Source: an uncultured bacterium
Lineage (GTDB): Bacteria > Krumholzibacteriota > Krumholzibacteriia > LZORAL124-64-63
DNA length: 64,000 nucleotides
Assembly: GCA_963727525.1 (NCBI GenBank)
Contig: CAVSGO010000007.1
Location: 2,016,001-2,080,000 of the forward strand
Direction of reading: 5' to 3'
The translations under genes and the position numbers were made by a program. This document shows, piece after piece, positions 26,576 through 43,303 of the stretch. How positions within the stretch are numbered: position 1 is the stretch's first letter; every line of letters begins with the position of its first letter. Below the pieces are notes generated by a model. It saw only the letters and a program-made list of their open reading frames with translations, did no database searches and had not been told where the DNA came from.

Positions 26576-27094
26576 CTACGTGGCCGACGGGTTCGGCGCG
26601 GAGGCCGCGACCCGACCGCCCAGCTCGCGGTCGATCATGAACAGCCCGGCGCCCTGCTCGCCCACGAGCTGCACCTTGGCGACGATGGCCTCGACCGTCG
26701 CCTCCTCCTCCACCTGCTCCCCGACGAACCACTCCAGCATCGCGTGCGTGGCATGGTCTTTCAGCTCGACGGCGAGGGTGGCCAGGTCGTTGATCCGCTG
26801 CGAGACCATGCGCTCGTGATCACGCGCGGCCTCGAAGACGGCGAGCGTCGAGTCCCAGTTCTGGGTCGGCTTGGCGATGGTGTCCAGCGCCACGTTGCCC
26901 CCGCGATCCACGATGTAGCGGTAGAACTTGAGCGCGTGTTGCTGCTCCTCCTGGTACTGGACGAGCATCCAGTTCGCCATGCCTGCGAGGCCGCGATTCT
27001 CGAAATAAGCCGCCATCGCGAGATAGAGATAGGCCGAGTAGGCCTCGGCGTTGATCTGTTCGTTCAGAGCCTTCTGCATGCGATCGCTCAGCAA
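26576..27094 (-). CDS. ftnA: Non-heme ferritin
   Basis: ALNEQINAE.YSAYLYLAM, Q..EE..HA.K, HE..V, L.WFV.EQVEEE. TTG start after GAGGAGG. Confidence 0.93.
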   Translation of the reverse strand: MLSDRMQKALNEQINAEAYSAYLYLAMAAYFENRGLAGMANWMLVQYQEEQQHALKFYRYIVDRGGNVALDTIAKPTQNWDSTLAVFEAARDHERMVSQRINDLATLAVELKDHATHAMLEWFVGEQVEEEATVEAIVAKVQLVGEQGAGLFMIDRELGGRVAASAPNPSAT

Positions 27095-27130
27095 GGTGAT
27101 CCTCCTCGAATGGGGTCGGCGTCTCGTCGC

Positions 27131-27568
27131 TCAGGCCGTGGCATCCTGGTTACCGGCCAGTTCGACCATCTTGTTCAGCAGAAACTCGTGCTTCTCCTCC
27201 TCGAGACGCAGGTAAGTGAGCAGGAGCTCCTGGATCTCCAGACCATGCCCCTCCAGCGCAACCAGGCTGGTGCGCGCGAGCCGGACGGTTTCCTTCTCCA
27301 TGGCCGCGTGCGACTGGAGCTTCGCCCAGACCTCTCCGAGGTCGGCGGCGTCGAGATTGAGCACGCGCGACTGGAGACTGTCGATGAGCATCTGCTCGAC
27401 GCGGTGGTGCATCTGGCTGTCGCGCTGGATGATCTCCATGAGAATACAGAGCAGCGGGTGGTTCGTCGACTCGATCACGCTGCCCGTGAGGGTGATGGTC
27501 GCGTTCTCGATCTTCTGCCACTGCCGGAGATTCTCGACGAGTTGCTGCTGCAGTTCCCGTGTCGACAT
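27131..27568 (-). CDS. Ferritin-like four-helix-bundle protein
   Basis: GGAGGT RBS. Pattern IEN...IQRDSQMH...MEKE...EEEKH resembles di-iron ligand helices. Confidence 0.65.
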   Translation of the reverse strand: MSTRELQQQLVENLRQWQKIENATITLTGSVIESTNHPLLCILMEIIQRDSQMHHRVEQMLIDSLQSRVLNLDAADLGEVWAKLQSHAAMEKETVRLARTSLVALEGHGLEIQELLLTYLRLEEEKHEFLLNKMVELAGNQDATA

Positions 27569-27787
27569 GCCGCACCTCCCGCCCGGCGGGTCGGCGACGT
27601 TGCCACCCGCATCGTGAGAATGGTAGTCCAGCGCGGCAGCACGGCAAACCTCGAAGTCGGGGCGAGCGAGCGTTTGCCGGGAAAACCACAATTGCGCCGC
27701 GTTTTCATTTCCCTATCATGTGGCGCAATGCCCACTCGGCGCCCTCTGCGGCGCCGTCGCCCCCCTGTGACCCGAAAGGACCTTCTG

Positions 27788-28882
27788 ATGCCGAGGAAGA
27801 TCATCGCGGACTTCGCGATCGAGCACCTGGAGATCCTCGACGTGGACGGCCGCGTCGACAAGGCACTCGAGCCCGATCTCCCCACGGACGACCTGCTGCG
27901 CCTCTATCGCGGCATGGTGCTGGCCCGGGAGATGGACGAGCGCATGTTCAAGCTGCAGCGCCAGGGCCGCCTCGGCACGTTCCCGCCCTGCATCGGTCAG
28001 GAAGCCGTGAGTACGGCCGCCGCCCTCGCCATGCAACCCGACGACTGGTTCGTGGGCGCGTTCCGCGAGCTCGGCGGGCGGCTGCTGCGCGGCGAGCCGC
28101 TCACGTCCACGCTCTACTACTACAACGGCTGGGAAGAGGGCAACGTCCTGCCGCCACAGGTCGCCCGGCGCATGCTGCCCATCGCCGTGGTCGTGGCCAG
28201 CCAGATCCCTCAGGCCGCCGGCATCGGCTACGCCGTCAAGCTGCGCGGGGCGCCCGAGGCCGTGGTGTGTTTCATGGGTGACGGCGCCACCAGCGAGGGC
28301 GACTTCTACGAGGGTCTCAACTTCGCCGCCGTGTGGCAGGCGCCGGTCGTGTTCATCAGCCAGAACAACCAGTGGGCGATCTCCGTCCCCCGCGAAAAGC
28401 AGACGCGCTCGGCAACGCTCGCGCAGAAGGGCATTGCCGCGGGCATGCCATGTCTGCAGGTGGACGGCAACGATCCGTTGGCCTGCTACGTCGCGGTGAA
28501 GGACGCGCTCGACCACGCCCGCGCCGGCCACGGCCCCACGTTCATCGAGGCCGTCACCTATCGTCTCACCGTGCACACCACTGCAGACGACCCGCGCAAG
28601 TACCGCAGCGAGGCCGAGGAGCAGGAATGGTGGCGGCGCGAGCCCCTGAGCCGCATGCAGAAGTACCTGGAAGCGAGGAAACTCTGGGACGACGAGCGCG
28701 AGGCGACCTTGCGCGCGGAAATCCGGTCCGAGATCGACGTGGCCGTCAAGACCTTCGAGGCGGAGACGAACTTCGCCACCGACCTGCCCTTCAGCCACAT
28801 CTATGCCGAAACCCCGCCGGCGATCGAGCGGCAGCGCCAGGAGTTTCTTTCCAGCCTCACGGAGGTGACCGGCGATGCCTAA
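27788..28882 (+). CDS. pdhA: 2-oxoacid (pyruvate-type) dehydrogenase E1 alpha subunit
   Basis: Motifs LQRQGR, GQEA, GDGATSEGDF.E.LN.A...NNQWAIS (TPP binding), VDGND and YRL..HTTADDP. AAGGA RBS. Confidence 0.92.
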   Translation: MPRKIIADFAIEHLEILDVDGRVDKALEPDLPTDDLLRLYRGMVLAREMDERMFKLQRQGRLGTFPPCIGQEAVSTAAALAMQPDDWFVGAFRELGGRLLRGEPLTSTLYYYNGWEEGNVLPPQVARRMLPIAVVVASQIPQAAGIGYAVKLRGAPEAVVCFMGDGATSEGDFYEGLNFAAVWQAPVVFISQNNQWAISVPREKQTRSATLAQKGIAAGMPCLQVDGNDPLACYVAVKDALDHARAGHGPTFIEAVTYRLTVHTTADDPRKYRSEAEEQEWWRREPLSRMQKYLEARKLWDDEREATLRAEIRSEIDVAVKTFEAETNFATDLPFSHIYAETPPAIERQRQEFLSSLTEVTGDA

Positions 28883-29855
28883 GCTCACGATGGTGCAGGC
28901 CATCAACCTCGCGCTGAAGCAGGAGATGGCACGCGATGAGAACGTGATCGTGCTCGGCGAGGATGTCGGTCGCGACGGCGGCGTATTCCGCGTCACCGAG
29001 GGTCTGCTGGACGAGTTCGGCGAGGCGCGCGTGATGGACACGCCCCTGGCCGAGTCGGGCATCCTCGGCACGTCGCTCGGCATGGCGATGGCGGGTCTGC
29101 GCCCGGTCGCGGAGATGCAGTTCAGCGGCTTCAGCTACCTGATGTTCCACCAGTGGGAAGGCAACGTCACCCGCATGCGCAGTCGCACGCAGGGCCACTT
29201 CACGGCACCCCTCGTGGTGCGCATGCCCTACGGTGGCGGGGTGCGCGCCCTCGAGCATCACAGCGAGAGCCGGGAAGCGACGTATGCCCACATCCCCGGC
29301 GGCAAGGTGGTGATCCCCAGCGGGCCGCGCAACGCGCGCGCCCTCCTGGTGGCCGCGATCCGTGATCCGGACCCGGTGGTGTTCATGGAACCCAAGCACA
29401 GCTACCGGTCGTTCCGCGAGGATGTGCCCGAGGCGGAGGAGGTGATGCCCCTCGGTCAGGCGCAGGTCGTACAGCCGGGCGATCAGCTCACGGTGGTGTC
29501 CTGGGGCGCGATGATGCGTCCCACCCTCAAGGCCGTGGCCGAGGTCGGCGAAAAGCGCGGCGCGAGCATCGAGGTCATCGACATGCTCTCGATCGCTCCG
29601 CTCGACGGCGCCGCGGTCGTCGCGTCGGTGAAGAAGACGGGACGCTGCGTCGTGGTGCAGGAAGCGCCGCGCAGTTTCGGCGTGGCCTCCGAGATTATCG
29701 CTTGCCTCAACGACGACGCCTTGCTCTATCTCGAAGCCCCGGTAAAACGTCTCACGGGATTCGACGTGGTGATGCCGTACTTCGGTCGCGAGAAGAACTA
29801 CATCCCGACGGTGCCCCGGATCGTCGCCGCGATCCACGAGACCCTCGACTTCTAG
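28875..29855 (+). CDS. pdhB: 2-oxoacid dehydrogenase E1 beta subunit
   Basis: Motifs GEDVGRDGGVFRVTEGL, DTPLAE, EMQF, GGGVRALEHHSE and DPVVFMEPK. Confidence 0.93.
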   Translation: MPKLTMVQAINLALKQEMARDENVIVLGEDVGRDGGVFRVTEGLLDEFGEARVMDTPLAESGILGTSLGMAMAGLRPVAEMQFSGFSYLMFHQWEGNVTRMRSRTQGHFTAPLVVRMPYGGGVRALEHHSESREATYAHIPGGKVVIPSGPRNARALLVAAIRDPDPVVFMEPKHSYRSFREDVPEAEEVMPLGQAQVVQPGDQLTVVSWGAMMRPTLKAVAEVGEKRGASIEVIDMLSIAPLDGAAVVASVKKTGRCVVVQEAPRSFGVASEIIACLNDDALLYLEAPVKRLTGFDVVMPYFGREKNYIPTVPRIVAAIHETLDF

Positions 29856-29864
29856 GAGGCCGAC

Positions 29865-31199
29865 GTGTTCGAGTTCAAGCTCCCCGATCTCGGCGAGGGC
29901 ATCCACGAGGGCGAGATCCTCAAGTGGCACGTGGCGGTGGGCGGCGCGATCGTCGAGGACGCACCCCTCGTCGACGTGGAAACCGACAAGGCGGCCGTCA
30001 CCATCCCCTCGCCGCGCGGCGGCAAGGTGGTCCGCCTGAACGGCAACGTGGGCGACACGGTGAACGTGGGCGACGTCATCATCAGCATCGACGACGGCAA
30101 GGACGCCGCGACGGCGGTGGCTTCATCGGCCGTGGCCGCGGCCGCGCCGGCGGCGGCCACGGTGCCCGCCACGCCGACGCCGGCCATCGCGCCCGGCCGC
30201 CGGCGGCCGGTGCCCGCCGCGCCGGCCACGCGCCGCCTCGCCCGGGAACTGGGTGTGGCCATCGACACGGTGCCACCGAGCGGCCCGGCCGGTCGGGTGA
30301 CGGCCGACGACGTGCGCCGCGTCGCCGCCGGCGGTGTCCCCATTGCCGCGAAGACCGCGGAGGTGCTGCCGGACGGTCATGTGACCGCGCACGATGTGCG
30401 GGACGACCGCGCGTTTGCCGAGTTCGCCGCCCACGCCGCGGCCACCATCCCCTTCCTCGAGCTGGAGCCCCTGCCCGATTTCCGCCACGAGGGCCCGGTC
30501 GAGATCGAACCCCTGCGCTCGATCCGCCGCAAGGTCGCGCGCAAGATGGTCACGAGCATGGCCCTGGTGCCGCATGTGGCCCACATGGACGAGGCCGACG
30601 TCTCCGCGCTCGAACGCTTCCGTCGCCAGCAGAAGGAGAAGAATCCCGACGATCCGGGGCTCGGCTCGCTCACGTTGCTGGCCTTCGTGATCAAGGCCGT
30701 CACGGCGGGGCTGCGCGCGGCGCCGTCGTTCAACGCCAGTCTCGATCCGTTCAAGGAAGAGATCATCTACAAGAAGTACTACAACATCGGCTTCGCGACG
30801 GACACGGGGCGCGGACTGCTGGTACCGGTGATCCGCGATACCGACCGCAAGAGCCTGCGCGAGATCTCGGCCGAGGTGGCGCACAAGGCGGCGGCCGCGC
30901 GCGAGGGCAAGCTGCCGGTGGAGGACATGCGCGCCGGCACGTTCACGATCACCAACGTCGGCCCGCTCGGCGGCACGGCGCTGCTGGCCACGATCAACTA
31001 CCCCGAGGTGGCGATCCTCGCCATGGGCCGCGCACAGAAGAAGCCGGTGGTGCGCGACGGCGAGATCGTGGTGCGCACGATGCTGCCGCTCACGCTGGCC
31101 TTCGATCACCGCATCGCCGACGGCGCCGATGCGGCGCGCTTCGTCAGCGAGCTGATCCGCCACCTCTCGGACCCGAACCTGCTCTTGCTCGAGACGTGA
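29865..31199 (+). CDS. pdhC: Dihydrolipoamide acyltransferase E2 (one lipoyl domain)
   Basis: FKLPDLGEGIHEGEI, VETDKA (lipoyl lysine), PATRRLARELGV subunit-binding domain, TFTITN and DHRIADG. Confidence 0.93.
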   Translation: MFEFKLPDLGEGIHEGEILKWHVAVGGAIVEDAPLVDVETDKAAVTIPSPRGGKVVRLNGNVGDTVNVGDVIISIDDGKDAATAVASSAVAAAAPAAATVPATPTPAIAPGRRRPVPAAPATRRLARELGVAIDTVPPSGPAGRVTADDVRRVAAGGVPIAAKTAEVLPDGHVTAHDVRDDRAFAEFAAHAAATIPFLELEPLPDFRHEGPVEIEPLRSIRRKVARKMVTSMALVPHVAHMDEADVSALERFRRQQKEKNPDDPGLGSLTLLAFVIKAVTAGLRAAPSFNASLDPFKEEIIYKKYYNIGFATDTGRGLLVPVIRDTDRKSLREISAEVAHKAAAAREGKLPVEDMRAGTFTITNVGPLGGTALLATINYPEVAILAMGRAQKKPVVRDGEIVVRTMLPLTLAFDHRIADGADAARFVSELIRHLSDPNLLLLET

Positions 31200-31233
31200 T
31201 GACCTCACCCGTTCGCGGCGCAAGGAGAGCCTC

Positions 31234-32655
31234 ATGGTGATGGGAAGTCTGCGCGAGGAGACCCAGGTCGCCGTCATCGGCAGCGGCCCGGGCGGATACG
31301 TGGCTGCGCTGCGCCTGGCCGACCTCGGCCTCGAGGTGCTGCTCATCGAGGAGCGCGAACGTGACGGCGGCACCTGTCTGCTCGAGGGTTGCATCCCCTC
31401 GAAGGCGCTGATCAACGCCGTCGAGGTGAAGGACGCCGCCGTGGCCGGCACGCAGTTCGGACTCGACGTCGGCTCGTGGCAGATCGACCTGCCGAAGCTG
31501 CGCACCTGGACGGAAGGGATCGTGGCGGGCCTCTCCACCGGCGTCGCCGGATTGCTCAAGCGCCGCGGGGTGCAGGTGCTGCGCGGGCGCGCCCGCTTCA
31601 GCTCGAGCACGAGCCTGGAGCTCGCGGGCGGCGAGGTGAGCGGCGTCGATTTCCAGCACGCCATCATCGCCACCGGATCGAGCCTGGCGCGCCTACCCGA
31701 GGGCATGACGCGCGCCGTATGGTCGAGCGCCGACGCGCTCAAGCTTCCGCGCATACCCGGGTCGCTTCTCGTGGTGGGCGGCGGCTACATCGGCCTGGAA
31801 CTGGGACTCGTCTACCAGGGCCTGGGCAGCCAGGTCTCGGTGGTGGAGTTCTTCCCCCGCCTGCTCATGGGTGCCGATCAGGACCTCGTGGACATCATGG
31901 TGAAGCACGTGAGCGGCCGGCTCGAACACGTCATGGTCGAGAGCAGGGTGGAACGCATCGTCGAGGCGGAGGGCGGCGGGTTCACCGTCACGATCGCGCA
32001 CGAAGGCGACGTCACGGCGCAACATTTCGACCAAGTACTCGTGGCCATCGGCCGGCGGCCCAACACCGACAACATCGGACTGGAGCATACGAAGGTGGGT
32101 GTGGACGAACGCGGCGTGATCCGCACCGACGAATCGTGCCGCACCGACGATCCGCATATCTTCGCCATCGGCGACGTGACGGCCGGGCCCATGCTGGCCC
32201 ACAAGGCGAGCCGCGAAGCGAAGGTTGCCGCCGAGGTCATCGCGGGTCATCCCGCAGCCTTCGACAACCGCGCGATCCCCGCCGTGGTCTACACCGACCC
32301 GGAGATTGCGTGGGTCGGGATCACCGAGCGCGAGGCGGCCGCGGCCGAGCGGGCCGTGAAGGTGGGTCGCTTCCCGATGTCGGCCCTGGGACGTGCGCGC
32401 ACCCTCGGGCGGACCGACGGCCTGGTGAAGGTCATCTGCGACCCCGAAGACGAACTGATCCTCGGCGTGGGCATCGTGGCACCGCACGCGAGCGAGCTGA
32501 TCGCCGAGGCCGCGCTCGCGATCGAGATGGGCGCCACCCTGCAGGATCTCATTGCCACCATCCATCCCCATCCCTCGCTCTCGGAGGCGATCATGGAGGC
32601 GGCCGAGGCGGCGGCGGGCGAGGCCATCCACATCAATCCGCCGCGCAAGTCGTGA
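31234..32655 (+). CDS. lpdA: Dihydrolipoamide dehydrogenase E3
   Basis: Motifs GSGPGGY, GGTCLLEGCIPSK, GGGYIGLE, MLAHKA and HPHPSLSE. Confidence 0.95.
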   Translation: MVMGSLREETQVAVIGSGPGGYVAALRLADLGLEVLLIEERERDGGTCLLEGCIPSKALINAVEVKDAAVAGTQFGLDVGSWQIDLPKLRTWTEGIVAGLSTGVAGLLKRRGVQVLRGRARFSSSTSLELAGGEVSGVDFQHAIIATGSSLARLPEGMTRAVWSSADALKLPRIPGSLLVVGGGYIGLELGLVYQGLGSQVSVVEFFPRLLMGADQDLVDIMVKHVSGRLEHVMVESRVERIVEAEGGGFTVTIAHEGDVTAQHFDQVLVAIGRRPNTDNIGLEHTKVGVDERGVIRTDESCRTDDPHIFAIGDVTAGPMLAHKASREAKVAAEVIAGHPAAFDNRAIPAVVYTDPEIAWVGITEREAAAAERAVKVGRFPMSALGRARTLGRTDGLVKVICDPEDELILGVGIVAPHASELIAEAALAIEMGATLQDLIATIHPHPSLSEAIMEAAEAAAGEAIHINPPRKS

Positions 32656-33438: not shown

Positions 33439-34101
33439 ATGGAGTCGTACCGCATCCTGATCGTGGACGATCATCCGCTCGTTCGTTCCGGAATCGTCTC
33501 GATGCTGGAGCTAGAGCCAGACCTCACCGTCTGCGGGGAGGCGGAGGATCCTGCCGACGCGATGGATTCCATCGAGAAGCAGAAGCCGGATCTCGCGCTC
33601 GTCGATATCTCGCTGCGCGGCGGTACCAGCGGGCTGGAGCTGCTCAAGGCGATCCGTCAGAAGTACCCGCGGTTGAAGACGCTCGCCGTCTCGATGCACG
33701 ACGAGGAAGTGTACGCTCTGCGCGCGCTCAAGGCGGGTGCGCAGGGCTACATCATGAAGCAGGAGGGTACGGAGCGTATCCGCGAGGCCATCCGCTGTGT
33801 CCTCGAGGGTCGCACCTATCTCAGTGAAGGCATGACGCAGGCGGCCGTCGACCAGCTCGGCCAGAGCGGCATTCCGCGCGATACCTCGCCGTCGACCGTC
33901 CTCAGCGACCGTGAACTCGAGCTGTTCGAGCTGACGGGACAGGGCAAGGAGATCAACGAGATCGCCAAGATCATGAATATCAGCCCCCGCACCGTCGAGG
34001 TGCACCGCTCTCACATCAAGAAGAAGCTGGGCCTGAAAACGAGCACCGACATCTTTCAGAACGCATACGAGTGGCTCCGGGAACGCGGCATGAAACCATG
34101 A
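33439..34101 (+). CDS. NarL/LuxR family response regulator (REC plus HTH), no adjacent kinase
   Basis: ILIVDDHPLVR, PDLALVDISL (phospho-Asp), SMHDE, GYIMK and LSDRELE...ISPRTVEVHRSHIKKKL. Confidence 0.95.
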   Translation: MESYRILIVDDHPLVRSGIVSMLELEPDLTVCGEAEDPADAMDSIEKQKPDLALVDISLRGGTSGLELLKAIRQKYPRLKTLAVSMHDEEVYALRALKAGAQGYIMKQEGTERIREAIRCVLEGRTYLSEGMTQAAVDQLGQSGIPRDTSPSTVLSDRELELFELTGQGKEINEIAKIMNISPRTVEVHRSHIKKKLGLKTSTDIFQNAYEWLRERGMKP

Positions 34102-34127
34102 CCGTTGGTTCCGACAGTGCAACACGA

Positions 34128-34161
34128 GAGGCGGACCTCGAACGGGCCGCCTCGTTTTTTT
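34128..34161 (+). terminator. Rho-independent terminator
   Basis: GAGGCGG...CCGCCTC stem followed by GTTTTTTT. Confidence 0.75.
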
Positions 34162-34305
34162 GGAACTGGCTAGCGAGCCCCGCAAAACTCCTAGTCAAGA
34201 GATAAAATTAGTGTTAAGAGTTCGCTGGAGATGTGGTAATAACAAGATGAGCCTGGTCGGGAGTGGAAGGCGGGTCGATTCACACCATCGTGTAAGGAGG
34301 CCGGA

Positions 34306-34560
34306 ATGAGTAGTAGGGCTCACGAATACTGGATGGCCAACATCCGTCTCGTAGTTGGGTGCATCGCCGTCTGGTTCCTGGTCTCGTTCGGGTTCGGCAT
34401 CCTTCTCGCCGAACCGCTGAATAGCATCAAAATCGGGGGATACAAGCTGGGCTTCTGGTTCGCCCAGCAGGGTTCGATCTACACGTTCGTGGCCCTGATC
34501 TTCTTCTACGCGCATCGCATGAACATCCTGGACCGCAGATACAACGTGCACGAGGACTGA
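34306..34560 (+). CDS. DUF4212 small membrane subunit of a solute:sodium symporter
   Basis: YW.AN..L, WFLVSFG and GG..LGFWFAQQGSI..F..LIF.Y..RM..LD. AAGGAGG RBS. Confidence 0.92.
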   Translation: MSSRAHEYWMANIRLVVGCIAVWFLVSFGFGILLAEPLNSIKIGGYKLGFWFAQQGSIYTFVALIFFYAHRMNILDRRYNVHED

Positions 34561-34652
34561 TCAATTCTGCTCCTGGCGGACGTGACCGGGACCCGGTCGT
34601 CAGCCAACGAGCGCTCGCGTTCGGGACGTTCAAAGAGAAGGAGAGCGGCTCC

Positions 34653-36422
34653 ATGGACCTCAAGACCATGACCTTCGTGGTGGTCGGACTGACCTTCGCG
34701 ATCTACATCTACATCGCCATCCGCGCCCGCGCCGTCAGCACGTCGGAGTTCTACGTGGCCGGCAAGGGTGTCCATCCCGTGCTCAACGGCATGGCCACGG
34801 GCGCCGACTGGATGTCGGCGGCGTCGTTCATCTCCATGGCCGGCATCATCGCCTTCAGCGGTTACGGCGCGTCGGCCTACCTGATGGGCTGGACCGGAGG
34901 CTACGTATTGCTGGCCATGCTCCTGGCTCCGTACCTGCGCAAGTACGGCAAGTTCACGGTGCCGGAGTTCATCGGCGACCGCTTCTACTCCAAGAGCGCG
35001 CGTGGCGTCGCGATCCTATGCCTGATCGTCGCCTCGCTGACTTACGTGATCGGCCAGATGAAGGGCGTGGGCGTGGCCTTCTCGCGCTTCCTCGAGGTGC
35101 CGTTCGCGACGGGCGTCTACGTGGGCATGGGCATTGTCTTCATCTACGCCGTGCTCGGCGGCATGAAAGGCATCACCTACACGCAGATCGCACAGTACTG
35201 CGTCCTCATCTTCGCCTACACGGTTCCCGCCATCTTCATCTCGATGCAGCTCACCGGCAACCCGATCCCCCAGCTCGGTCTGGGCGGGACGCTCTCGGGG
35301 ACCAACGTGCACCTGCTCGACAAACTCGATCTGATCTGCACAGACCTTGGTTTCGCCCAGTACACGACGCAGAAAGGGTCCATGCAGGACATGTTCCTGC
35401 TGACGTTGACGCTCATGATCGGCACCGCCGGATTGCCCCACGTGATCACGCGCTTCTTCACGGTGCCGCGCGTTCGCGATGCGCGCTCGTCGGCCGGCTG
35501 GGCCCTCGTGTTCATCGCCATCCTCTACACCACGGCACCGGCCGTGGCCGCGATGGCCCGCCTCAATTTCATGCACACCGTGCAGACGGGCGAGATCGGC
35601 GCTCCCAATGGCAACCTGCTCATCGCCAACGCGCCGGCGTGGTTCAACAACTGGGAGAAGACCGGCCTGCTGCAGGTCGAGGACAAGAACGGCGATGGCC
35701 GCATCCAGTACTACGGCCCGGGCCTCGACGCCAAGGCGGCCGCGTTCGGCTGGAAGGGCAACGAGATGGTAAAGGTCGACCGTGACATCATGGTACTGGC
35801 CAACCCGGAGATCGCGGGGCTGCCCAACTGGGTCATCGCGCTCGTGGCTGCCGGCGGCATCGCCGCGGCACTCTCCACGGCGGCCGGTTTACTGTTAGCG
35901 ATCGCGTCGGCCATATCGCACGACCTGTTCAAGGGCATCTTCACGCCCAACATCTCCGAACGTACGGAACTGAGGGTGGGCCGCGCCTCCATGGCGGTGG
36001 CGATCGTCGTCGCCGGCATCCTGGGGCTCAATCCACCGGGCTTCGCGGCCCAGGTCGTGGCGCTGGCCTTCGGCCTGGCGGCGTCGTCGATCTTCCCGGC
36101 GATCATGATGGGCATCTTCAATCGGCGCATGAACAAATCCGGCGCCATTGCCGGCATGCTCGCCGGTCTGCTCTTCACGATCGTCTACATCTTCCTCTAC
36201 AAGGGCTGGTTCTTCGTCAAGGGCACGAACGTGCTGCCGGACGACAAGGCCCACTGGTTGCTCGGCATCTCGCCGGGCTCGATCGGCGCGATCGGCGCGC
36301 TCATCAACTTCATCGTGGCCTGGATCGTATCGAAGGTCACTCCGCCGCCGCCTGAGCACATCCAGGCGATGGTGGAGGACATCCGCGTGCCGGTGGGCTC
36401 GCGCGGCGCGACGGAACACTAG
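34653..36422 (+). CDS. Sodium:solute symporter (ActP-related, probable acetate/monocarboxylate permease)
   Basis: Motifs FYVAG, NGMATGADWMSAASF, GKFTVPEFIGDRF, GGMKGITYTQ, GTAGLPH, RFFTVP and AAALSTAAGLL. Confidence 0.93.
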   Translation: MDLKTMTFVVVGLTFAIYIYIAIRARAVSTSEFYVAGKGVHPVLNGMATGADWMSAASFISMAGIIAFSGYGASAYLMGWTGGYVLLAMLLAPYLRKYGKFTVPEFIGDRFYSKSARGVAILCLIVASLTYVIGQMKGVGVAFSRFLEVPFATGVYVGMGIVFIYAVLGGMKGITYTQIAQYCVLIFAYTVPAIFISMQLTGNPIPQLGLGGTLSGTNVHLLDKLDLICTDLGFAQYTTQKGSMQDMFLLTLTLMIGTAGLPHVITRFFTVPRVRDARSSAGWALVFIAILYTTAPAVAAMARLNFMHTVQTGEIGAPNGNLLIANAPAWFNNWEKTGLLQVEDKNGDGRIQYYGPGLDAKAAAFGWKGNEMVKVDRDIMVLANPEIAGLPNWVIALVAAGGIAAALSTAAGLLLAIASAISHDLFKGIFTPNISERTELRVGRASMAVAIVVAGILGLNPPGFAAQVVALAFGLAASSIFPAIMMGIFNRRMNKSGAIAGMLAGLLFTIVYIFLYKGWFFVKGTNVLPDDKAHWLLGISPGSIGAIGALINFIVAWIVSKVTPPPPEHIQAMVEDIRVPVGSRGATEH

Positions 36423-36443
36423 GTCGTCAACGACCATCGAGAC

Positions 36444-36469
36444 AGGGCGCCGGCTTCGGCCGGCGCCCT
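36444..36469. terminator. Hairpin with cUUCGg tetraloop between convergent genes
   Basis: AGGGCGCCGGC-TTCG-GCCGGCGCCCT, a perfect 11-bp stem. Confidence 0.65.
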
Positions 36470-36489
36470 CCAGCGTCTGTATGGCCGGG

Positions 36490-38292
36490 TCAGACCTGCG
36501 TCCGGAAGCGCTGGGCCACCGCCTCCTGAAGCGACCGGATGACCCCGAAGGCATCCTTGAGCAGCCGATGATCCCGCGGAGACAGATTCCCGAGGTCGAT
36601 GCGATTGTCGAGCACACCCCCGGCGTGCAGGGCGGCGAGCTGTGCGCGCAGGCGCATCTGCAGGAGGAAACGGTAGGTCTCGATGCTGGTGGTCCCCAGA
36701 TCGCGACTCAGCAATCCCGCGGCGATCGCCGCTTCCAGACGTTCGCGCGTGGGTCGTGCGGCGCTGCGGGCCTGCAGCGCGTAGACCCTCGCCGCGCTGA
36801 CCAATGGCGCCAGACCGCCGGTCTTGACGTCGACCCGACCATCCTCCGCCTGGATGCGATGGAAGAGCCCCAGTGGCGGTCGCCAGTTGAGCGAGGCGCG
36901 GGCCATGTGCAGCATGAAGAGCTGGTTGTCGCCCGCCGCGGCCACCTGATCCACGAGCGGCGTCACGTCGAGATCGCCGGCGATAGCGCGGAAATCGAAG
37001 AAGATGGCCGCCACCATCAGTGCCTGCGGATCGGGCGTGCGGATCCAGTCGCCGAAGGTGCGCTGCCACCCGGCGAGCGAACGACACCACTGCGTCGCCA
37101 TGAATCCGCCCGGACAGGGCGGGAAGCCAGCCGTGACGAGACTGTCCACCGCGAGGCGCGCGAGTCGGGGAAAGTAAGCCTGCGCCTCGGCGCTGTCGTC
37201 GGCATGGACGAGGGCGTTGTCCTGGTCGTTGATCAGCACCTGCTCCATACGACCTTCGGACCCGAAGACGAGCCAGGCATACGCGCAGGGCGGCGGGCCA
37301 AGCTGCGACTCGGCCAGCCGCAGGACCTGGCGCACGAGCGTGTCGCCCACGCTCGCGCAGATGCGCCCGATCTGGGCCACCTTGAGACCGCCCTCGAAGA
37401 GACGCTCCACCATGCTGGCCACGCCGCTCGCGTAGGTGGCGAGCGCCTCGGGGGCATCGACGTGCTCGAGCTGTTGCATGAGGTAGAGTGGGCTGCGCGT
37501 CTGATGGCGCATCAGATCGGTGGCCGAGAGCACGCCGCGGATCTCGCCCGCCGCGGTCACAGGCACGTGGTGGATCCGTTCCTGCAACATGAAGAGCAGA
37601 GCGGCATGCACCGGTACGTCGTCGTCGAGCGTCTTGAGCGGTCGCGTCATCACGTCGCTCGCGATCATGTCGGCGCCACGATCGGCCGCCAGCACGCGTG
37701 TCTGGAAATCATGGTCCGTGAGGATGCCTGGCGGGTCGCTAGAGACGATGGCCACGTCGACGCGCGCATCGCGCATGGCGCGCGCGACCTCGCCCACGGT
37801 GGCGGACGGCGACACGACGAGCGGCCGCTGCAGCCCGAGATCGCCGATCGCAGCCGTCAATTCCCCGCCCAGGGACGCCACCTCGCGCCGCGTGACGCGG
37901 CGCAGCCGCTCGCTCAGGCTCTTCAGGAAGAACTCGGCGAACGGCGCGTTGCCCAGGAGTTCCCGGAAATCGGCGGCCGGGATCCCGTGAACGGTGACGG
38001 CATCCACCGCGACGGCGTCGAGGGACGGCGGCGCCATGCCGATGATCGACGGGTAGCCGAAGCAGTCGCCTTCCTCGAGGATCTGCACCGTCACCCCGTC
38101 GCGCGTCAGGTGTACCGTGCCCTCGGCCACGAGGTACACGCAGGGGCTGGGCTTACCCCCCACGCGCAGGATGCGAGTGCCGGGACGGAAGACCTCGGTG
38201 CGGACCGCGGCCTCCACCCGCACACGCTCGGCATCATCGAGCAGCACGAAGGGATGGTGGGTACGCAGAAGCTCGCCGATCGTCGCCGCCAT
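36490..38292 (-). CDS. cNMP-binding / CBS-pair / DUF294 putative nucleotidyltransferase
   Basis: PF..L...LEEGDCFG (cNMP). GILTDHD..MT.P and IHHVPV..G.LS..DL (CBS). FGSEGRMEQ...DQDNAL, GFP.C.G..MA..W, FFDFR and DVK.GGL.P (DUF294 and DUF294_C). GGGAGG RBS. Confidence 0.92.
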   Translation of the reverse strand: MAATIGELLRTHHPFVLLDDAERVRVEAAVRTEVFRPGTRILRVGGKPSPCVYLVAEGTVHLTRDGVTVQILEEGDCFGYPSIIGMAPPSLDAVAVDAVTVHGIPAADFRELLGNAPFAEFFLKSLSERLRRVTRREVASLGGELTAAIGDLGLQRPLVVSPSATVGEVARAMRDARVDVAIVSSDPPGILTDHDFQTRVLAADRGADMIASDVMTRPLKTLDDDVPVHAALLFMLQERIHHVPVTAAGEIRGVLSATDLMRHQTRSPLYLMQQLEHVDAPEALATYASGVASMVERLFEGGLKVAQIGRICASVGDTLVRQVLRLAESQLGPPPCAYAWLVFGSEGRMEQVLINDQDNALVHADDSAEAQAYFPRLARLAVDSLVTAGFPPCPGGFMATQWCRSLAGWQRTFGDWIRTPDPQALMVAAIFFDFRAIAGDLDVTPLVDQVAAAGDNQLFMLHMARASLNWRPPLGLFHRIQAEDGRVDVKTGGLAPLVSAARVYALQARSAARPTRERLEAAIAAGLLSRDLGTTSIETYRFLLQMRLRAQLAALHAGGVLDNRIDLGNLSPRDHRLLKDAFGVIRSLQEAVAQRFRTQV

Positions 38293-38314
38293 GGCAACGT
38301 CCTCCCGTTGGCCG

Positions 38315-38713
38315 TCAGTCGTCCGGATCGGCCGGCGGGGGCGCCACGATGCGCCCCAGGATGAGGCCACCGGCGAAGCCATAGATCCAGCCGGCCGCAG
38401 CACCCACCAGGACCAGGCGCGGCGACGGCGCCAGCGCTGCGATCACCACCAGGGCGCCGCTGAGCAGACCGACGCTGCCCAGCAATGCGGCGGCAGATCG
38501 AATGCGCCGCGTCCGGGTCACGAGCATGCCGCCGGCGGCCCAGACCAGCGCGGTCAGGGGCGCCATGCGCAAGAGGAACGCGGTGAGGGCCGTGCGGTCG
38601 CCGTACCCAGCAATCTCCAGCGCTACCGGGAGCACGCTCGCCACCAGGCTGATCCCGGCGAAGCAGCCGAGCAGCCCACCGACGAGCCAGCGGACGAAGC
38701 GTTTTTCGAACAT
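38315..38713 (-). CDS. Hypothetical four-TM membrane protein
   Basis: 132 aa with four Gly-rich hydrophobic segments. It fills the gap and is co-oriented with the DUF294 gene. Confidence 0.6.
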   Translation of the reverse strand: MFEKRFVRWLVGGLLGCFAGISLVASVLPVALEIAGYGDRTALTAFLLRMAPLTALVWAAGGMLVTRTRRIRSAAALLGSVGLLSGALVVIAALAPSPRLVLVGAAAGWIYGFAGGLILGRIVAPPPADPDD

Positions 38714-38808
38714 GGTACGGGCACTCTAGCATCGGTCCACGGGCTTGACCAGCGCCGTACATCCAGCTCGGTCTTGCCAGAAAGGCGCGCGTCCCCAAAG
38801 ATGGCGTC

Positions 38809-40212
38809 ATGAATGCCGCCTCGTACCAGACGATCAAGAGCTGCCTCCTGTGGGCGGTGGTCTGCGCGGCGATCGGCGCCTCCGCCCTGGGGCGCGTGGC
38901 CGCCACCGACCAGACGCCAGGACACGGGACGTGGTTCGTGGTGATGGTGACCGGGGTCTGGTCGCTCGCATTGCTCGTGCGTGCCTGGGTGATCGCGGAC
39001 CGCCTGGGCGCCGGACTGGCCGCGGTGCGTACGGCCGTCCTGAACCTCGTCGCCGAACACGACGCGGTGCCGCCCGATGGGCTCGGCGAAGGACTTCCGG
39101 CCGAGATCGCCGACATGCTGGCGTCGCTGGCGCGTTACCAGGGCGATGTGATCCGCGAACGCCAGGCCCCGGACCGGCGGCTCGTAGCGGTACTCGCCTC
39201 GCTGGCCAGCGGCGTGGTGGTCGTCACGGACAAGGGTCAGGTGAGCCTGCTGAACTACCCCGCCCGCGAGCTGCTGGGCGCGGAGCGGGCGCGCGTGGGC
39301 ACCTCGGTCTTCGCCGCGCTGGCGCGCGACACCGTGCTGCACGCCATCGCCCGTGCCCAGGACGCCGCACGCCCGGTGGAGGCCCTGTTCGAGCGGCTCG
39401 ATGGCGTGGAACTGCAGGGCCGCGTCGCCCCCCTCGCCGATGGCGAGGGCGCCGTGATCATCTTCCCACCGATCGAGCTCGCCCGGAATCGCCCCGGCGT
39501 GGAGTTCGATCTGGGCCTGCACGATGCGCCACCGGTCGTGGCGCCGCTCTCGCTCGGCATCCCGCTCGACGAGCTGCCGGCCGTGATCCTGGACACCGAG
39601 ACCACGGGGCTCGACGTCGCGACCGACCGCATCGTCTCGTTCGGAGCCGTATGCACCCACGGAACACGCATGTTCCGCGGCTATCTCATCGACGACGTCG
39701 TGAACCCGGGCGTTCCCGTTCCGCCACGCTCCACCGCCATCCACGGCATCACCGACGCCATGGTGCGCGACGGGCGCAGCTTCGCCCAGGTCTACGCGGA
39801 TTTCGAGCGCCTCGCCCGCAATCGCGTGGTGGTGGGCCACAACATCCCCTTCGACCTCACGCTGATGCGCCACGAGTGCGCCCGTGCCGGCCGCCCCTGG
39901 AACGACCGTGTCTTCATCGACACCCTGCGCCTCGCTTCGCTGCTGAACCCCACGCTCCGTCGCTTCGAGCTGGAGAATCTGTCGCAGATCTACCAGATCG
40001 ACCTGCGCGGCCGCCACACCGCCCTCGGTGACGCGATGGTGACCGCCGAGCTGTTCTTCCGCATGATCCCCCGCCTCCAGCAGCAGGGTTTCGCCACGCT
40101 TGGCGACCTGCTGCGGTTCCAGGACACCGAGGCCGTGGACGTGATCGCCAAGCAGCGCGAGGCCGGCTGGATCGTGTCCCAGCCCGCGGCTCTCGACCGT
40201 GAACCCCGCTGA
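38809..40212 (+). CDS. Membrane-anchored PAS-domain DEDDh (DnaQ-like) 3'-5' exonuclease
   Basis: Two N-terminal TM helices and a PAS-like segment (GVVVVTDKGQVSLLN.PARELLG). Exonuclease motifs LDTETTGLD, GHNIPFD, IDTL and HTALGDA. Confidence 0.88.
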   Translation: MNAASYQTIKSCLLWAVVCAAIGASALGRVAATDQTPGHGTWFVVMVTGVWSLALLVRAWVIADRLGAGLAAVRTAVLNLVAEHDAVPPDGLGEGLPAEIADMLASLARYQGDVIRERQAPDRRLVAVLASLASGVVVVTDKGQVSLLNYPARELLGAERARVGTSVFAALARDTVLHAIARAQDAARPVEALFERLDGVELQGRVAPLADGEGAVIIFPPIELARNRPGVEFDLGLHDAPPVVAPLSLGIPLDELPAVILDTETTGLDVATDRIVSFGAVCTHGTRMFRGYLIDDVVNPGVPVPPRSTAIHGITDAMVRDGRSFAQVYADFERLARNRVVVGHNIPFDLTLMRHECARAGRPWNDRVFIDTLRLASLLNPTLRRFELENLSQIYQIDLRGRHTALGDAMVTAELFFRMIPRLQQQGFATLGDLLRFQDTEAVDVIAKQREAGWIVSQPAALDREPR

Positions 40213-40244
40213 AACGAAACCCCGCAACGCCCAGTCAACAACTC

Positions 40245-40274
40245 TTGATTCAAACCACCGCCTCGTGGTATAAC
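40245..40274 (+). promoter_or_regulatory. Sigma70-like promoter for acs
   Basis: TTGATT-N18-TATAAC with an extended -10 (TGG TATAAC). Confidence 0.5.
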
Positions 40275-40344
40275 CCGATATGCCGTGGCCGCTTGCAGCG
40301 ACCGGCGCATCGATGTCCATGAGTTGAGTCAGGAGGTTCGCGTG

Positions 40345-42309
<1,965 letters not shown>

Positions 42310-42314
42310 ACGGC

Positions 42315-42351
42315 GCCGGCCGGCCGCTCCAGGGAGCGGTCGGCCGGCTTT
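42315..42351 (+). terminator. Long GC hairpin after acs
   Basis: GCCGGCCGGCCGCTCC / GGAGCGGTCGGCCGGC, a stem of about 15 bp with one G-U pair, followed by only TTT. Confidence 0.5.
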
Positions 42352-42364
42352 CCAGGACATCACC

Positions 42365-43303
42365 TTGGACCACGCCTGCGAGCTCCATGTCCACCTCGAG
42401 GGCTGCGTCTGGCCGTCGCACGTACGCCGATGGTGGGCGCGCGCGAATCTGCGCTTTCCCGAGCCGACGAACAGCTCGGTGACGTCGTTCGAAAGTTTCC
42501 TCGCCCGGCTGCGCTACGGGTACAACTTCCTCAACGAGCCCGCGGCGTATGCGGACGTCGCCAGCGCGTACGCCGAACAGGCCGTGGCCCAGGGGATCCG
42601 CTACGCGGAACTTCAGATCAACCTGGCACTGCTCGATGCCTGGGACCTCGCGCTGTCCGAGGTGCTGGCGCGCATCGTCGGCCGCGTGGCACGAGTGCCG
42701 CGGGCTCCGGACCTACGGTTCGTCATCGACCTGCCGTGGCAATTCGATGCCAGGCGGCTGCATGCCGTCGTCGACCGCATCGCCGAGCTGGGGCGCCTTG
42801 GCGTGCGCGGCATCAGCTTCGGCGGGCGCGAGAGCGAGGCGCGTCCGGCCGAGGCGGCTCCCGTGGCCGCCGCAGCACGCGCCGCCGGATTGAAGGTGCT
42901 CTGTCATGCCGGCGAGGGCACCGACAGCGACCTGGCGCAGCGCATCGTCGAGGCGGTGCAGCCTGATCGCGTCACGCACGGCGTCGCCCTCGCCGACTGG
43001 CTCGCCGCCCAGGGCGCGCAGGCTCCCCCGGTCGACGTGTGCCTGTCCAGCAACCTCCGGCTCGGTGTCATCCCGGGCCTCGACGCTCACCCCCTGCGGC
43101 GCTGGTGGGACGCGGGCGTGCCCGTGTGCCTGGCCACGGATGACCCCGCCATCTTCGATACCACGCTTGGCCGGGAGTACGCCCTGGCGACTCGCCTCTG
43201 CCCCGCCCTCGCAACCGACCGCGACCGGATTGTCGCCCACTGGCTGCGCGCAGCGCTCGATACCACGGCCGCGGCGAGGGCACTGGGCCGCGACGGTTCC
43301 TGA
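42365..43303 (+). CDS. Adenosine/adenine deaminase family protein
   Basis: Motifs ELHVHLEG, RYAE, HAGE, RVTHG, VCLSSN and ATDDP.F.TTL..EY. TTG start after AGGA. Confidence 0.85.
   Translation: MDHACELHVHLEGCVWPSHVRRWWARANLRFPEPTNSSVTSFESFLARLRYGYNFLNEPAAYADVASAYAEQAVAQGIRYAELQINLALLDAWDLALSEVLARIVGRVARVPRAPDLRFVIDLPWQFDARRLHAVVDRIAELGRLGVRGISFGGRESEARPAEAAPVAAAARAAGLKVLCHAGEGTDSDLAQRIVEAVQPDRVTHGVALADWLAAQGAQAPPVDVCLSSNLRLGVIPGLDAHPLRRWWDAGVPVCLATDDPAIFDTTLGREYALATRLCPALATDRDRIVAHWLRAALDTTAAARALGRDGS

Follow-up and report, generated by a model that had tools for sequence, protein, structure and literature searches.

The DNA analysed here is a 64,000-nt stretch (the window) of contig CAVSGO010000007.1 from an uncultured, Krumholzibacteriota-like bacterium, with approximately 68% G+C throughout. 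Between 33.4 and 42.3 kb it contains genes for a response regulator, a DUF4212 protein and a sodium/solute symporter, followed by a DUF294 nucleotidyltransferase (NTase) gene and a small membrane protein gene, both on the minus strand, and then by genes for a DEDDh exonuclease and acetyl-CoA synthetase (acs). The LuxR-type regulator, the DUF4212 plus VC_2705 symporter and Acs make up a Na+/monocarboxylate (acetate-type) uptake and activation unit. The trio considered here lies between the symporter and acs, as an earlier reading of the sequence by itself (the first-pass annotation) had stated. The small membrane gene and the NTase gene are 19 nt apart on the same strand and in the same operon, a 95-nt divergent promoter region lies between the small membrane gene and the exonuclease gene, and a 72-nt gap separates the latter from acs.

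All domains of the NTase scored above the Pfam cut-offs: cNMP_binding (47.9 bits, cut-off 27.5), two CBS domains (62.1 bits), DUF294 (PF03445; 153.1 bits, cut-off 21) and DUF294_C (PF10335; 138.5 bits, cut-off 22.5), an arrangement of the COG2905 type. The open reading frame (ORF) runs from 36490 to 38403 on the minus strand (637 aa) and overlaps the small membrane gene; the database protein of 600 aa begins with a Met at 38295. In an alignment of 17 homologues, the pol-beta motif G344-S345...D356-Q-D358 and the third carboxylate, D433, were invariant, bearing out the earlier claim that a cNMP-CBS-CBS-DUF294 protein with intact NTase motifs is encoded here. The protein is encoded by a single-copy gene, and Pfam identified no second NTase, HD or ACT domain in it, only cNMP_binding, CBS, DUF294 and DUF294_C.

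The AlphaFold2 model of this protein had a predicted local distance difference test (pLDDT) score of 80.4. When the NTase half of the model (residues 259-595) was compared with solved structures using VIA-align, GlnE (3k7d_B) aligned over 271 residues with a Z score of 15.3 and a root-mean-square deviation of 5.0, and was the only nucleotidyltransferase among the 50 matches listed. The Foldseek matches among those listed included 3k7d and 1v4a. A phmmer search with the NTase half against solved chains gave no match at E ≤ 10. From the predicted structure, the NTase and helical half is closest to the adenylyltransferase domains of GlnE. DUF294_C is likewise described as belonging to the same Pfam clan as the C-terminal domains of GlnD and GlnE (PMC3710099), so that the combination of a pol-beta NTase with a helical C-terminal domain of this clan is common to all of these proteins.

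The N-terminal domain has a cyclic-nucleotide-binding fold (PF00027; VIA-align Z scores of 17-18 to such domains). Where cGMP-dependent protein kinase (PKG) reads FGE...RSA, the family of the DUF294 protein reads FGY...P(A/S), with P89 nearly invariant, and Tyr and Pro thus occupy the Glu and Arg positions of the canonical phosphate-binding cassette. These Glu and Arg residues hold cAMP or cGMP. Because the cassette is degenerate, gating by cAMP or cGMP is doubtful, and the motif comparison indicates that this domain is probably not a cAMP reader.

The exonuclease has the domain plan of a transmembrane (TM) receptor. A TM hairpin (approximately residues 5-33 and 39-63) is followed by a signalling helix, a PAS-like domain (123-227) and a DEDDh domain (257-451). 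RNase_T (PF00929) matched residues 259-416 of the 467 with 120.7 bits, and the DEDDh residues D262 and E264 (Exo I, DxE), D349 (Exo II), and H403 and D408 (Exo III, Hx4D) were invariant in 23 homologues. So was a block in the PAS-like domain comprising T140, G143-Q-V-S-L147, N149, L156-G157, R160, G164 and S166. Hydropathy revealed two N-terminal hydrophobic helices, which the AlphaFold2 model (pLDDT 83) places at 5-33 and 39-82, with a helix between the hairpin and the alpha/beta domain. As a loop of about 10 residues joins the two long N-terminal helices in the model, a periplasmic domain is not predicted. The DEDDh residues and the two TM helices named in the first-pass annotation are thus well founded. 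For its PAS-like part, the evidence consists of a Pfam PAS (PF00989) score of 18 bits, below the cut-off of 22.6, and weak profile matches to the cytoplasmic PAS domains of the carboxylate sensors CitA and DcuS (E = 1.2e-4 to 1.9e-4). The model has five strands between 135 and 219 in this alpha/beta domain, consistent with a PAS-like fold, and Pfam PAS is pre-computed on several of the homologues.

Profile searches of the PDB matched the exonuclease of PolC (2p1j, 1.7e-33) and epsilon (1j53, 6e-21), and 672 homologues were found at E ≤ 0.001 among the matches listed. All NCBIfam dnaQ equivalogs scored below their cut-offs (TIGR01406, 87.3 versus 222.7; PRK05711, 93.5 versus 196), and the dnaq domain model TIGR00573 scored above its own (84.8 versus 71.5). 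The protein shares the DEDDh catalytic set and strong profile similarity with the epsilon and PolC proofreading domains, but differs from them in its membrane hairpin, its PAS module and the lack of a polymerase partner. Two further DnaQ-like genes lie elsewhere in the genome. As the first-pass annotation had argued from the membrane anchor and sensor domain, a role in replicative proofreading is unlikely; the sub-cut-off dnaQ scores and the two other DnaQ-like genes point the same way.

To examine the linkage of these genes, 185,579 species genomes were scanned with a degenerate pattern derived from the DUF294 alignment, and the 80 best loci were kept. These span Krumholzibacteriota-like metagenome-assembled genomes, Chloroflexota, Meiothermus/Calidithermus, Acidobacteriota, Binatia and others. 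In tblastn searches with the window proteins, the exonuclease domain was found in 49 of the 80 loci, the symporter in 61, DUF4212 in 55 and acs in 47; among the 37 loci flanked by 8 kb or more on either side, the corresponding numbers were 29, 34, 30 and 25, and all four were present together in 22. We also used hidden Markov models, treating a locus as assessable if at least 3.5 kb surrounded the NTase domain and searching for partners within 8 kb. By this rule the exonuclease lay within 8 kb of the DUF294 domain in 45/56 loci and the symporter in 51/56. Genomes of the family, 3-5 Mb in size, have no more than 1-3 exonuclease genes of this kind, and a rough estimate of the chance expectation for an exonuclease within 8 kb is about 1%. 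The proposal that DUF294, the exonuclease, the symporter and often acs are linked in other genomes therefore holds for several phyla, as well as for the Pseudomonas loci described below.

A sample of 101 genomes from the phylum gave a similar picture. High-scoring DUF294 genes, defined post hoc as at least 156 bits at a gap in the scores, were present in 12 genomes and the full-length TM-PAS exonuclease in 12, with both in 11. The two genes were within 3 kb of each other in eight of these, 9 kb apart in one, on different contigs in one and 206 kb apart in one.

The linked exonucleases occur in three forms. In the window and its nearest relatives, the TM-PAS protein of approximately 465 aa is encoded divergently from the NTase operon. 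In Chloroflexota, where one locus (L038) was examined with Pfam, the gene for a TM-HAMP-PAS protein of 700-780 aa lies about 5 kb downstream, on the far side of a histidine kinase gene. In Meiothermus and Acidobacteriota, the enzyme is a soluble protein of about 200 aa encoded 35-135 nt downstream of the NTase gene. Two lineages therefore use the exonuclease as the output domain of a TM-PAS receptor, and elsewhere it stands alone as a soluble protein of about 200 residues. A C-terminal motif common to all linked exonucleases was sought and rejected; there are three lineage-specific tails instead. The kinase between the DUF294 and exonuclease genes of the Chloroflexota locus (L038:12264-15104) has 946 aa, with HisKA and HATPase domains and an N-terminal part of about 680 residues that matched no domain. 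Further genes beyond these encode a second Acs, a relative of the small membrane protein and a YcxB-like protein.

The small membrane protein of the window (132 aa) was described earlier as a 4-TM protein encoded between the other two genes. The gene is real and lies between them, on the minus strand and co-directional with the DUF294 gene, and hydropathy gave three strong segments and one weaker one. A plus-strand ORF at 38502-38729 is its antisense shadow and was rejected as a gene, its translation being of low complexity. The protein matched no Pfam or NCBIfam family, and the protein atlas returned only unnamed clusters. Relatives were found by tblastn in 14 of the 80 loci; a TM-anchored exonuclease was detected in 9 of the 14 by the same search, and none of the 14 encodes the short soluble form.

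The lower-scoring DUF294 genes of the phylum sample encode proteins of a different architecture (TM, sCache_2, PAS, DUF294, DUF294_C), in which the sCache_2 domain is most like that of the MctS sensor and the GS...DxD motif and the third carboxylate are likewise kept. A gene for a 246-aa calcineurin-like phosphoesterase follows the Cache-type DUF294 gene by 9-100 nt in 16/16 loci from 16 genomes (L082-L084 and L087-L099; for example, L082:6056-11208), and an ActP/MctC-like symporter gene adjoins in 14/16. The metal-binding motifs of this metallophosphoesterase are invariant, and the solved structure closest to it is that of the 2'-5' phosphodiesterase Dbr1 (1.8e-10). The genome that contains the window carries only the cNMP/CBS type of DUF294 protein, the Cache type being absent.

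A metagenome scan with the Cache-type architecture yielded 79 loci, 36 of them assessable. One of three types of metallophosphoesterase was present in 23/36, 10/36 adjoin a TIM-barrel gene and 3/36 have neither; a symporter was found within 8 kb in 32/36. This AP_endonuc_2 TIM-barrel protein was considered as a fourth phosphodiesterase and rejected, since its solved relatives are MJ1311 and sugar 3-epimerases rather than endonuclease IV, and its gene is convergent. The convergent arrangement with the Cache-PAS-CBS-DUF294 gene was seen in 13 metagenome loci (L128-L175; for example, L142:8890-9732), within 172 nt in 12 of the 13. In L141, L148, L168 and L176 the Cache-DUF294 gene has a gene for a Crp-type regulator (cNMP_binding plus HTH_Crp_2) no more than about 1 kb away, and in L144 and L165 a 111-aa DUF6915-like protein is encoded 7 nt after the Cache-DUF294 gene.

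Among nine homologues longer than 1,050 residues, seven had a PHP phosphoesterase fused to Cache-PAS-CBS-DUF294 (among P0245-P0252). None of the nine was a DUF294-RNase_T fusion, which is weak evidence of absence, and another of these proteins (P0244) has an NAD-dependent epimerase domain fused to the cNMP/CBS form of DUF294. In the sets examined here, the cNMP/CBS type was seen only with the exonuclease, whereas the Cache type was seen only with metallophosphoesterases. The Cache-type receptors share with the window the NTase plus DUF294_C output, the adjacent monocarboxylate symporter and the pairing of an NTase with a phosphoesterase; they differ in carrying an extracytoplasmic sensor as part of the NTase protein, and in that the hydrolase has another fold. 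We found no paper on Cache-PAS-(CBS)-DUF294 proteins with a metallophosphoesterase or a fused PHP domain. We conclude from these data that GlnE-like transferases recur together with a phosphoesterase of one kind or another, in most cases next to a monocarboxylate symporter.

The gene pair itself is not new. It matches PP_0354/PP_0353 of Pseudomonas putida/alloputida KT2440, PA3233/PA3232 of Pseudomonas aeruginosa and Pflu5625 of Pseudomonas fluorescens, which belong to the CrbS/R (MxtR/ErdR) acetate regulon. In P. putida KT2440, PP_0354 (a CBS protein) and PP_0353 (RNase_T family) are reported to form an operon that is directly controlled by ErdR and to be among the genes most dependent on MxtR/ErdR. 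Mutants lacking PP_0353, the exonuclease, or actP-I are both described as growing poorly on pyruvate, in agreement with transposon data at 5 mM acetate, whereas loss of PP_0354, the NTase, is said to have little effect on pyruvate (all from PMC9927547 and 10.64898/2026.09.07.749794). The P. putida authors speculated on mRNA degradation in 2022 (PMC9927547) and on protein modification in 2026 (10.64898/2026.09.07.749794). PA3232-PA3235 of P. aeruginosa are reported to be co-induced (PMC9765439). For Pflu5625, regulation of proteins by nucleotidylation is predicted with reference to Aravind and Koonin 1999 (PMC5715377); the idea that the DUF294 family nucleotidylates proteins is thus already in print, there and in 10.64898/2026.09.07.749794. 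For Shewanella and P. stutzeri, DUF4212 is described as cofit with a nearby gene of the pair (the wording fits either one), and Price et al. speculated that symporter expression depends on this gene (10.1101/072470).

As judged by published description rather than by alignment, the Pseudomonas pair has the same architecture of a cNMP-like domain, two CBS domains and an NTase, with an RNase_T-family partner, and the same linkage to acetate/pyruvate/propionate uptake genes, acs and a LuxR-type regulator (PMC9927547, PMC5715377, PMC9765439, 10.64898/2026.09.07.749794). The window differs in several respects. Its exonuclease is a divergently encoded TM-PAS fusion, whereas in Pseudomonas a soluble enzyme is encoded downstream; the NTase gene has a small membrane gene before it; the symporter is of the DUF4212 plus VC_2705 type; and the organism is distant, its best matches being about 60% identical. 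Cross-phylum linkage, the TM-PAS receptor form and the swapping of partner hydrolases are what the present analysis adds.

The remaining features of the locus are collected in Table 1. The DUF4212 and symporter genes are adjacent, with 92 nt between them, and both VC_2705-type subunit models scored above their cut-offs. The response regulator scored below the NCBIfam cut-offs for MctR (152.1 versus 300) and ErdR (72.7 versus 390), and similar regulators were present in 16 of the 80 related loci. Among the window ORFs scanned (22.8-33.5 kb and 44.8-53.2 kb), no kinase gene was found, neither one adjoining the regulator gene nor, in contrast to the CrbS/CrbR regulon, one for a symporter-type (SLC5-STAC) sensor kinase.

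Table 1. Genes and sequence elements of the window with their positions and the evidence for each.
Feature	Position	Strand	Evidence or description
2-oxoacid dehydrogenase operon	26744..32655	+	E1 alpha, E1 beta, E2, E3
NarL/LuxR-type response regulator, MctR/ErdR-like	33439..34101	+	Receiver plus GerE helix-turn-helix; Pfam Response_reg 98 bits, GerE 58.6 bits
Hairpin followed by T run	34127..34160		G+C-rich
Motif CCGCAA-N(5-7)-AGTCAA, first copy	34180..34198		Before DUF4212 gene
DUF4212 small symporter subunit	34306..34560	+	PF13937 116.5 bits; TIGR03647 116 bits, cut-off 26.05
VC_2705-family sodium/solute (monocarboxylate-type) symporter, large subunit	34653..36422	+	PF00474 179.9 bits; TIGR03648 847.9 bits, cut-off 320.75
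Sensor NTase, ~600 aa	36490..38295	-	cNMP-like, CBS pair, DUF294, DUF294_C (Pfam)
Small membrane protein, 132 aa	38315..38713	-	3-4 predicted TM helices (translation and hydropathy)
Membrane-tethered sensor exonuclease, 467 aa	38809..40212	+	TM hairpin, PAS-like, DEDDh (Pfam RNase_T)
Motif CCGCAA-N(5-7)-AGTCAA, second copy	40222..40238		Before acs
Acetyl-CoA synthetase (acs)	40285..42309	+	TIGR02188 976.7 bits, cut-off 724.95; Pfam ACAS_N, AMP-binding, AMP-binding_C
Adenosine-deaminase-family gene	42365..43303	+	Below NCBIfam equivalog cut-offs
Pyruvate dehydrogenase E1 (AceE-type) gene	49531..52215		

A scan of 34050-42500 for consensus promoters and terminators gave no signal above that of shuffled sequence. 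A G+C-rich hairpin directly after the response-regulator gene, which does not appear among the results of that scan, looks like an intrinsic terminator dividing the regulator gene from the symporter operon. The motif CCGCAA-N(5-7)-AGTCAA, different from the ACTU inverted repeat that marks promoters of the CrbS/CrbR regulon, lies just 5' of promoter-like hexamers preceding DUF4212 and acs. These are its only two matches in 64 kb, against 0.02 expected for a pattern that was itself derived from the two sites, and it was found in 0/81 related loci; we offer it as a lead, a possible site for the adjacent LuxR-type regulator. The adenosine-deaminase-family gene begins 55 nt 3' of acs and none of the 80 related loci gave a tblastn match to it, so it probably lies outside the module. 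In the 2-oxoacid dehydrogenase operon just upstream of the cluster, the E1 alpha ORF has 712 aa with an E1_dh domain only at 389-674, and approximately 380 N-terminal residues matched no domain.

GlnE and GlnD are sensor-controlled enzymes that tag proteins reversibly with nucleoside monophosphates (NMPs), which they place on a tyrosine. The DUF294 protein differs from them in having a single NTase domain and a context of carboxylate uptake rather than nitrogen control, and in that the presumed removal activity resides in a separate DEDDh protein. For pairs of an NTase with an unrelated hydrolase, the nearest precedent, by analogy, is DrrA (SidM) and SidD of Legionella, a GlnE-like AMP-transferase and a metal-dependent enzyme of phosphatase fold, encoded by a neighbouring gene, that removes the tag. 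Those two proteins are secreted effectors acting on host Rab1, and they differ in having neither sensors, a DEDDh enzyme nor a transporter context.

The explanation that we tentatively prefer, while regarding it as somewhat more likely to be wrong than right, is that the DUF294 enzyme reversibly tags a protein of the symporter pathway with NMP and that the exonuclease removes the tag. It starts from the domain content, the intact catalytic residues, the GlnE-like fold, the membrane anchor, the conserved linkage and the difference in partner hydrolase between the types of DUF294 protein. Two sensor enzymes would then form a post-transcriptional switch built into the cluster. The soluble GlnE-like protein would move NMP from an NTP onto a hydroxyl of the target, its CBS pair probably reading an adenylate or other metabolite, and the DEDDh domain would hydrolyse the phosphodiester and release 5'-NMP. 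The PAS/TM module may set the activity of the exonuclease, and contacts made with the symporter or with the small membrane protein are one possible means. We infer that the target would be an uptake-pathway protein, most likely the symporter complex at the membrane, and that tagging would lower uptake and removal would restore it.

A writer/eraser relationship between the two enzymes had been proposed in the first-pass annotation, and its logic gains independent support from the fact that DUF294 paralogs with a Cache sensor pair with a metallophosphoesterase (in all 16 loci of the phylum sample and in most of the assessable metagenome loci) or with a fused PHP domain instead. Partner swapping supports this logic without identifying the substrate. 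Protein phosphatases are found in both the metallophosphoesterase and the PHP families. In many lineages one of the two partners is bound to the membrane, either the exonuclease (the window, Chloroflexota) or the NTase (Cache type), which fits a membrane target, and no neighbour is as constant across the various forms as the symporter. In P. putida, loss of the hydrolase mimics loss of the transporter on pyruvate. A sensor-gated switch that adds and removes a group on the uptake pathway at the membrane is the simplest model.

Several points weigh against reversible tagging of this kind. To our knowledge, no DEDDh exonuclease takes NMP off a protein, and the exonuclease of the window is closest to DNA proofreading domains such as that of PolC. 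The three hydrolase families include enzymes acting on short oligonucleotides and dinucleotides, so that partner swapping fits a nucleotide messenger equally well. In 11/56 assessable loci no exonuclease lies within 8 kb, one genome separates the two genes by 206 kb, and the counts overstate independence because related loci are kin. The P. putida phenotypes are only partly antagonistic: the PP_0353 and PP_0354 mutants are both reported to be worse on propionate (10.64898/2026.09.07.749794), which a simple antagonistic pair does not predict, and the pair is described as lying near glcB rather than near the transporter gene (PMC9927547). Full-text literature searches found no biochemical activity or substrate for a DUF294 protein or its partner.

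The main rival is a nucleotide second messenger, which we consider rather unlikely. DUF294 would make a linear or 2'-5' di- or oligonucleotide or a dinucleoside polyphosphate, the partner phosphodiesterase would degrade it, and a receptor would set the expression or activity of the symporter, much as c-di-GMP is made by diguanylate cyclases and degraded by EAL or HD-GYP enzymes. The presence of sensor modules on both enzymes (cNMP-like plus CBS, Cache plus PAS, TM-HAMP-PAS) is typical of messenger turnover; all partner families include small-nucleotide hydrolases (Orn, ApaH/CpdA, RNase AM); and the similarity of the 246-aa metallophosphoesterase to Dbr1 and the Crp-type cNMP-binding regulator within 1 kb in four metagenome loci are in keeping with it. 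However, the NTase fold is GlnE-like and not cGAS/DncV-like among the matches listed, the exonuclease resembles proofreading domains and not Orn, no conserved receptor gene accompanies the pair, and the Crp neighbour is limited to those four loci. It is less probable still that the pair acts on the 3' end of an RNA, as the CCA-adding enzyme and RNase T do. In such a switch the NTase would add untemplated nucleotides to the symporter or acs mRNA, a small RNA or a tRNA and the exonuclease would trim them, thereby setting how stable transcripts translated at the membrane are, or how well they are translated. As a DEDDh enzyme, the exonuclease is of the usual nucleic-acid kind, and both poly(A) polymerase and the CCA-adding enzyme belong to the pol-beta NTases; the published speculations on mRNA degradation (PMC9927547) and symporter expression (10.1101/072470) also lean this way. 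But neither protein has an RNA-binding domain in Pfam or NCBIfam, the resemblance of DUF294_C and of the fold is to GlnE rather than to NTases specific for RNA, and small metallophosphoesterases or PHP domains would be less expected as substitutes in RNA trimming. A conserved RNA element was neither looked for nor seen.

The propionate defect of both P. putida mutants (10.64898/2026.09.07.749794) would be easier to reconcile with two enzymes acting in the same direction on one substrate, either by synthesis and trimming or proofreading of a short nucleic acid or by activation and processing. The hydrolase partner tracks the sensor type of DUF294 in the sets examined, with the exonuclease accompanying cNMP/CBS and the metallophosphoesterase accompanying Cache, and a few genomes (G070, G099) break the phyletic overlap. 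The two P. putida mutants differ on pyruvate, however, and no template-binding or primer-binding module is present, and we regard such cooperation as improbable. It is most unlikely that there is no functional pair and that a housekeeping DnaQ-like repair or replication enzyme merely lies beside the DUF294 gene. The high similarity to PolC and epsilon domains and the TIGR00573 score above cut-off would suit such an enzyme, but the linkage is conserved in several phyla with a near-identical phyletic pattern, the protein has a membrane anchor and PAS module and scores below every dnaQ equivalog cut-off, and the genome has two other DnaQ-like genes. Co-regulation and operon structure are, moreover, reported for the Pseudomonas pair (PMC9927547).

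DUF294/COG2905 has been a predicted signalling nucleotidyltransferase since 1999 (cited in PMC5715377), and it is part of the regulon for acetate, pyruvate and propionate uptake in Pseudomonas and Vibrio, which is relevant to host colonisation and to strains used in biotechnology. The pattern of a transferase with a phosphoesterase narrows the options to a tag on a symporter-pathway protein, a small nucleotide messenger or an RNA tail. The window module is a version, from a distant phylum, of a known pair, with a receptor-type membrane-tethered exonuclease and a small membrane protein. More generally, it is possible, though on balance we would not yet expect it, that DUF294 enzymes write an undescribed reversible nucleotide tag, or make an undescribed messenger, that gates Na+/monocarboxylate symporters in several phyla, with any phosphodiesterase fold at hand serving as the eraser, here a receptor-type membrane-tethered DEDDh enzyme. 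The membrane-tethered PAS-exonuclease of the window is a convenient form for experiments: its catalytic domain lends itself to expression by itself, and its location points to the membrane. If that more general reading is true, it would be the first DnaQ-like enzyme known to act as the output domain of a signalling protein, and possibly the first with this fold to be a de-NMPylase.

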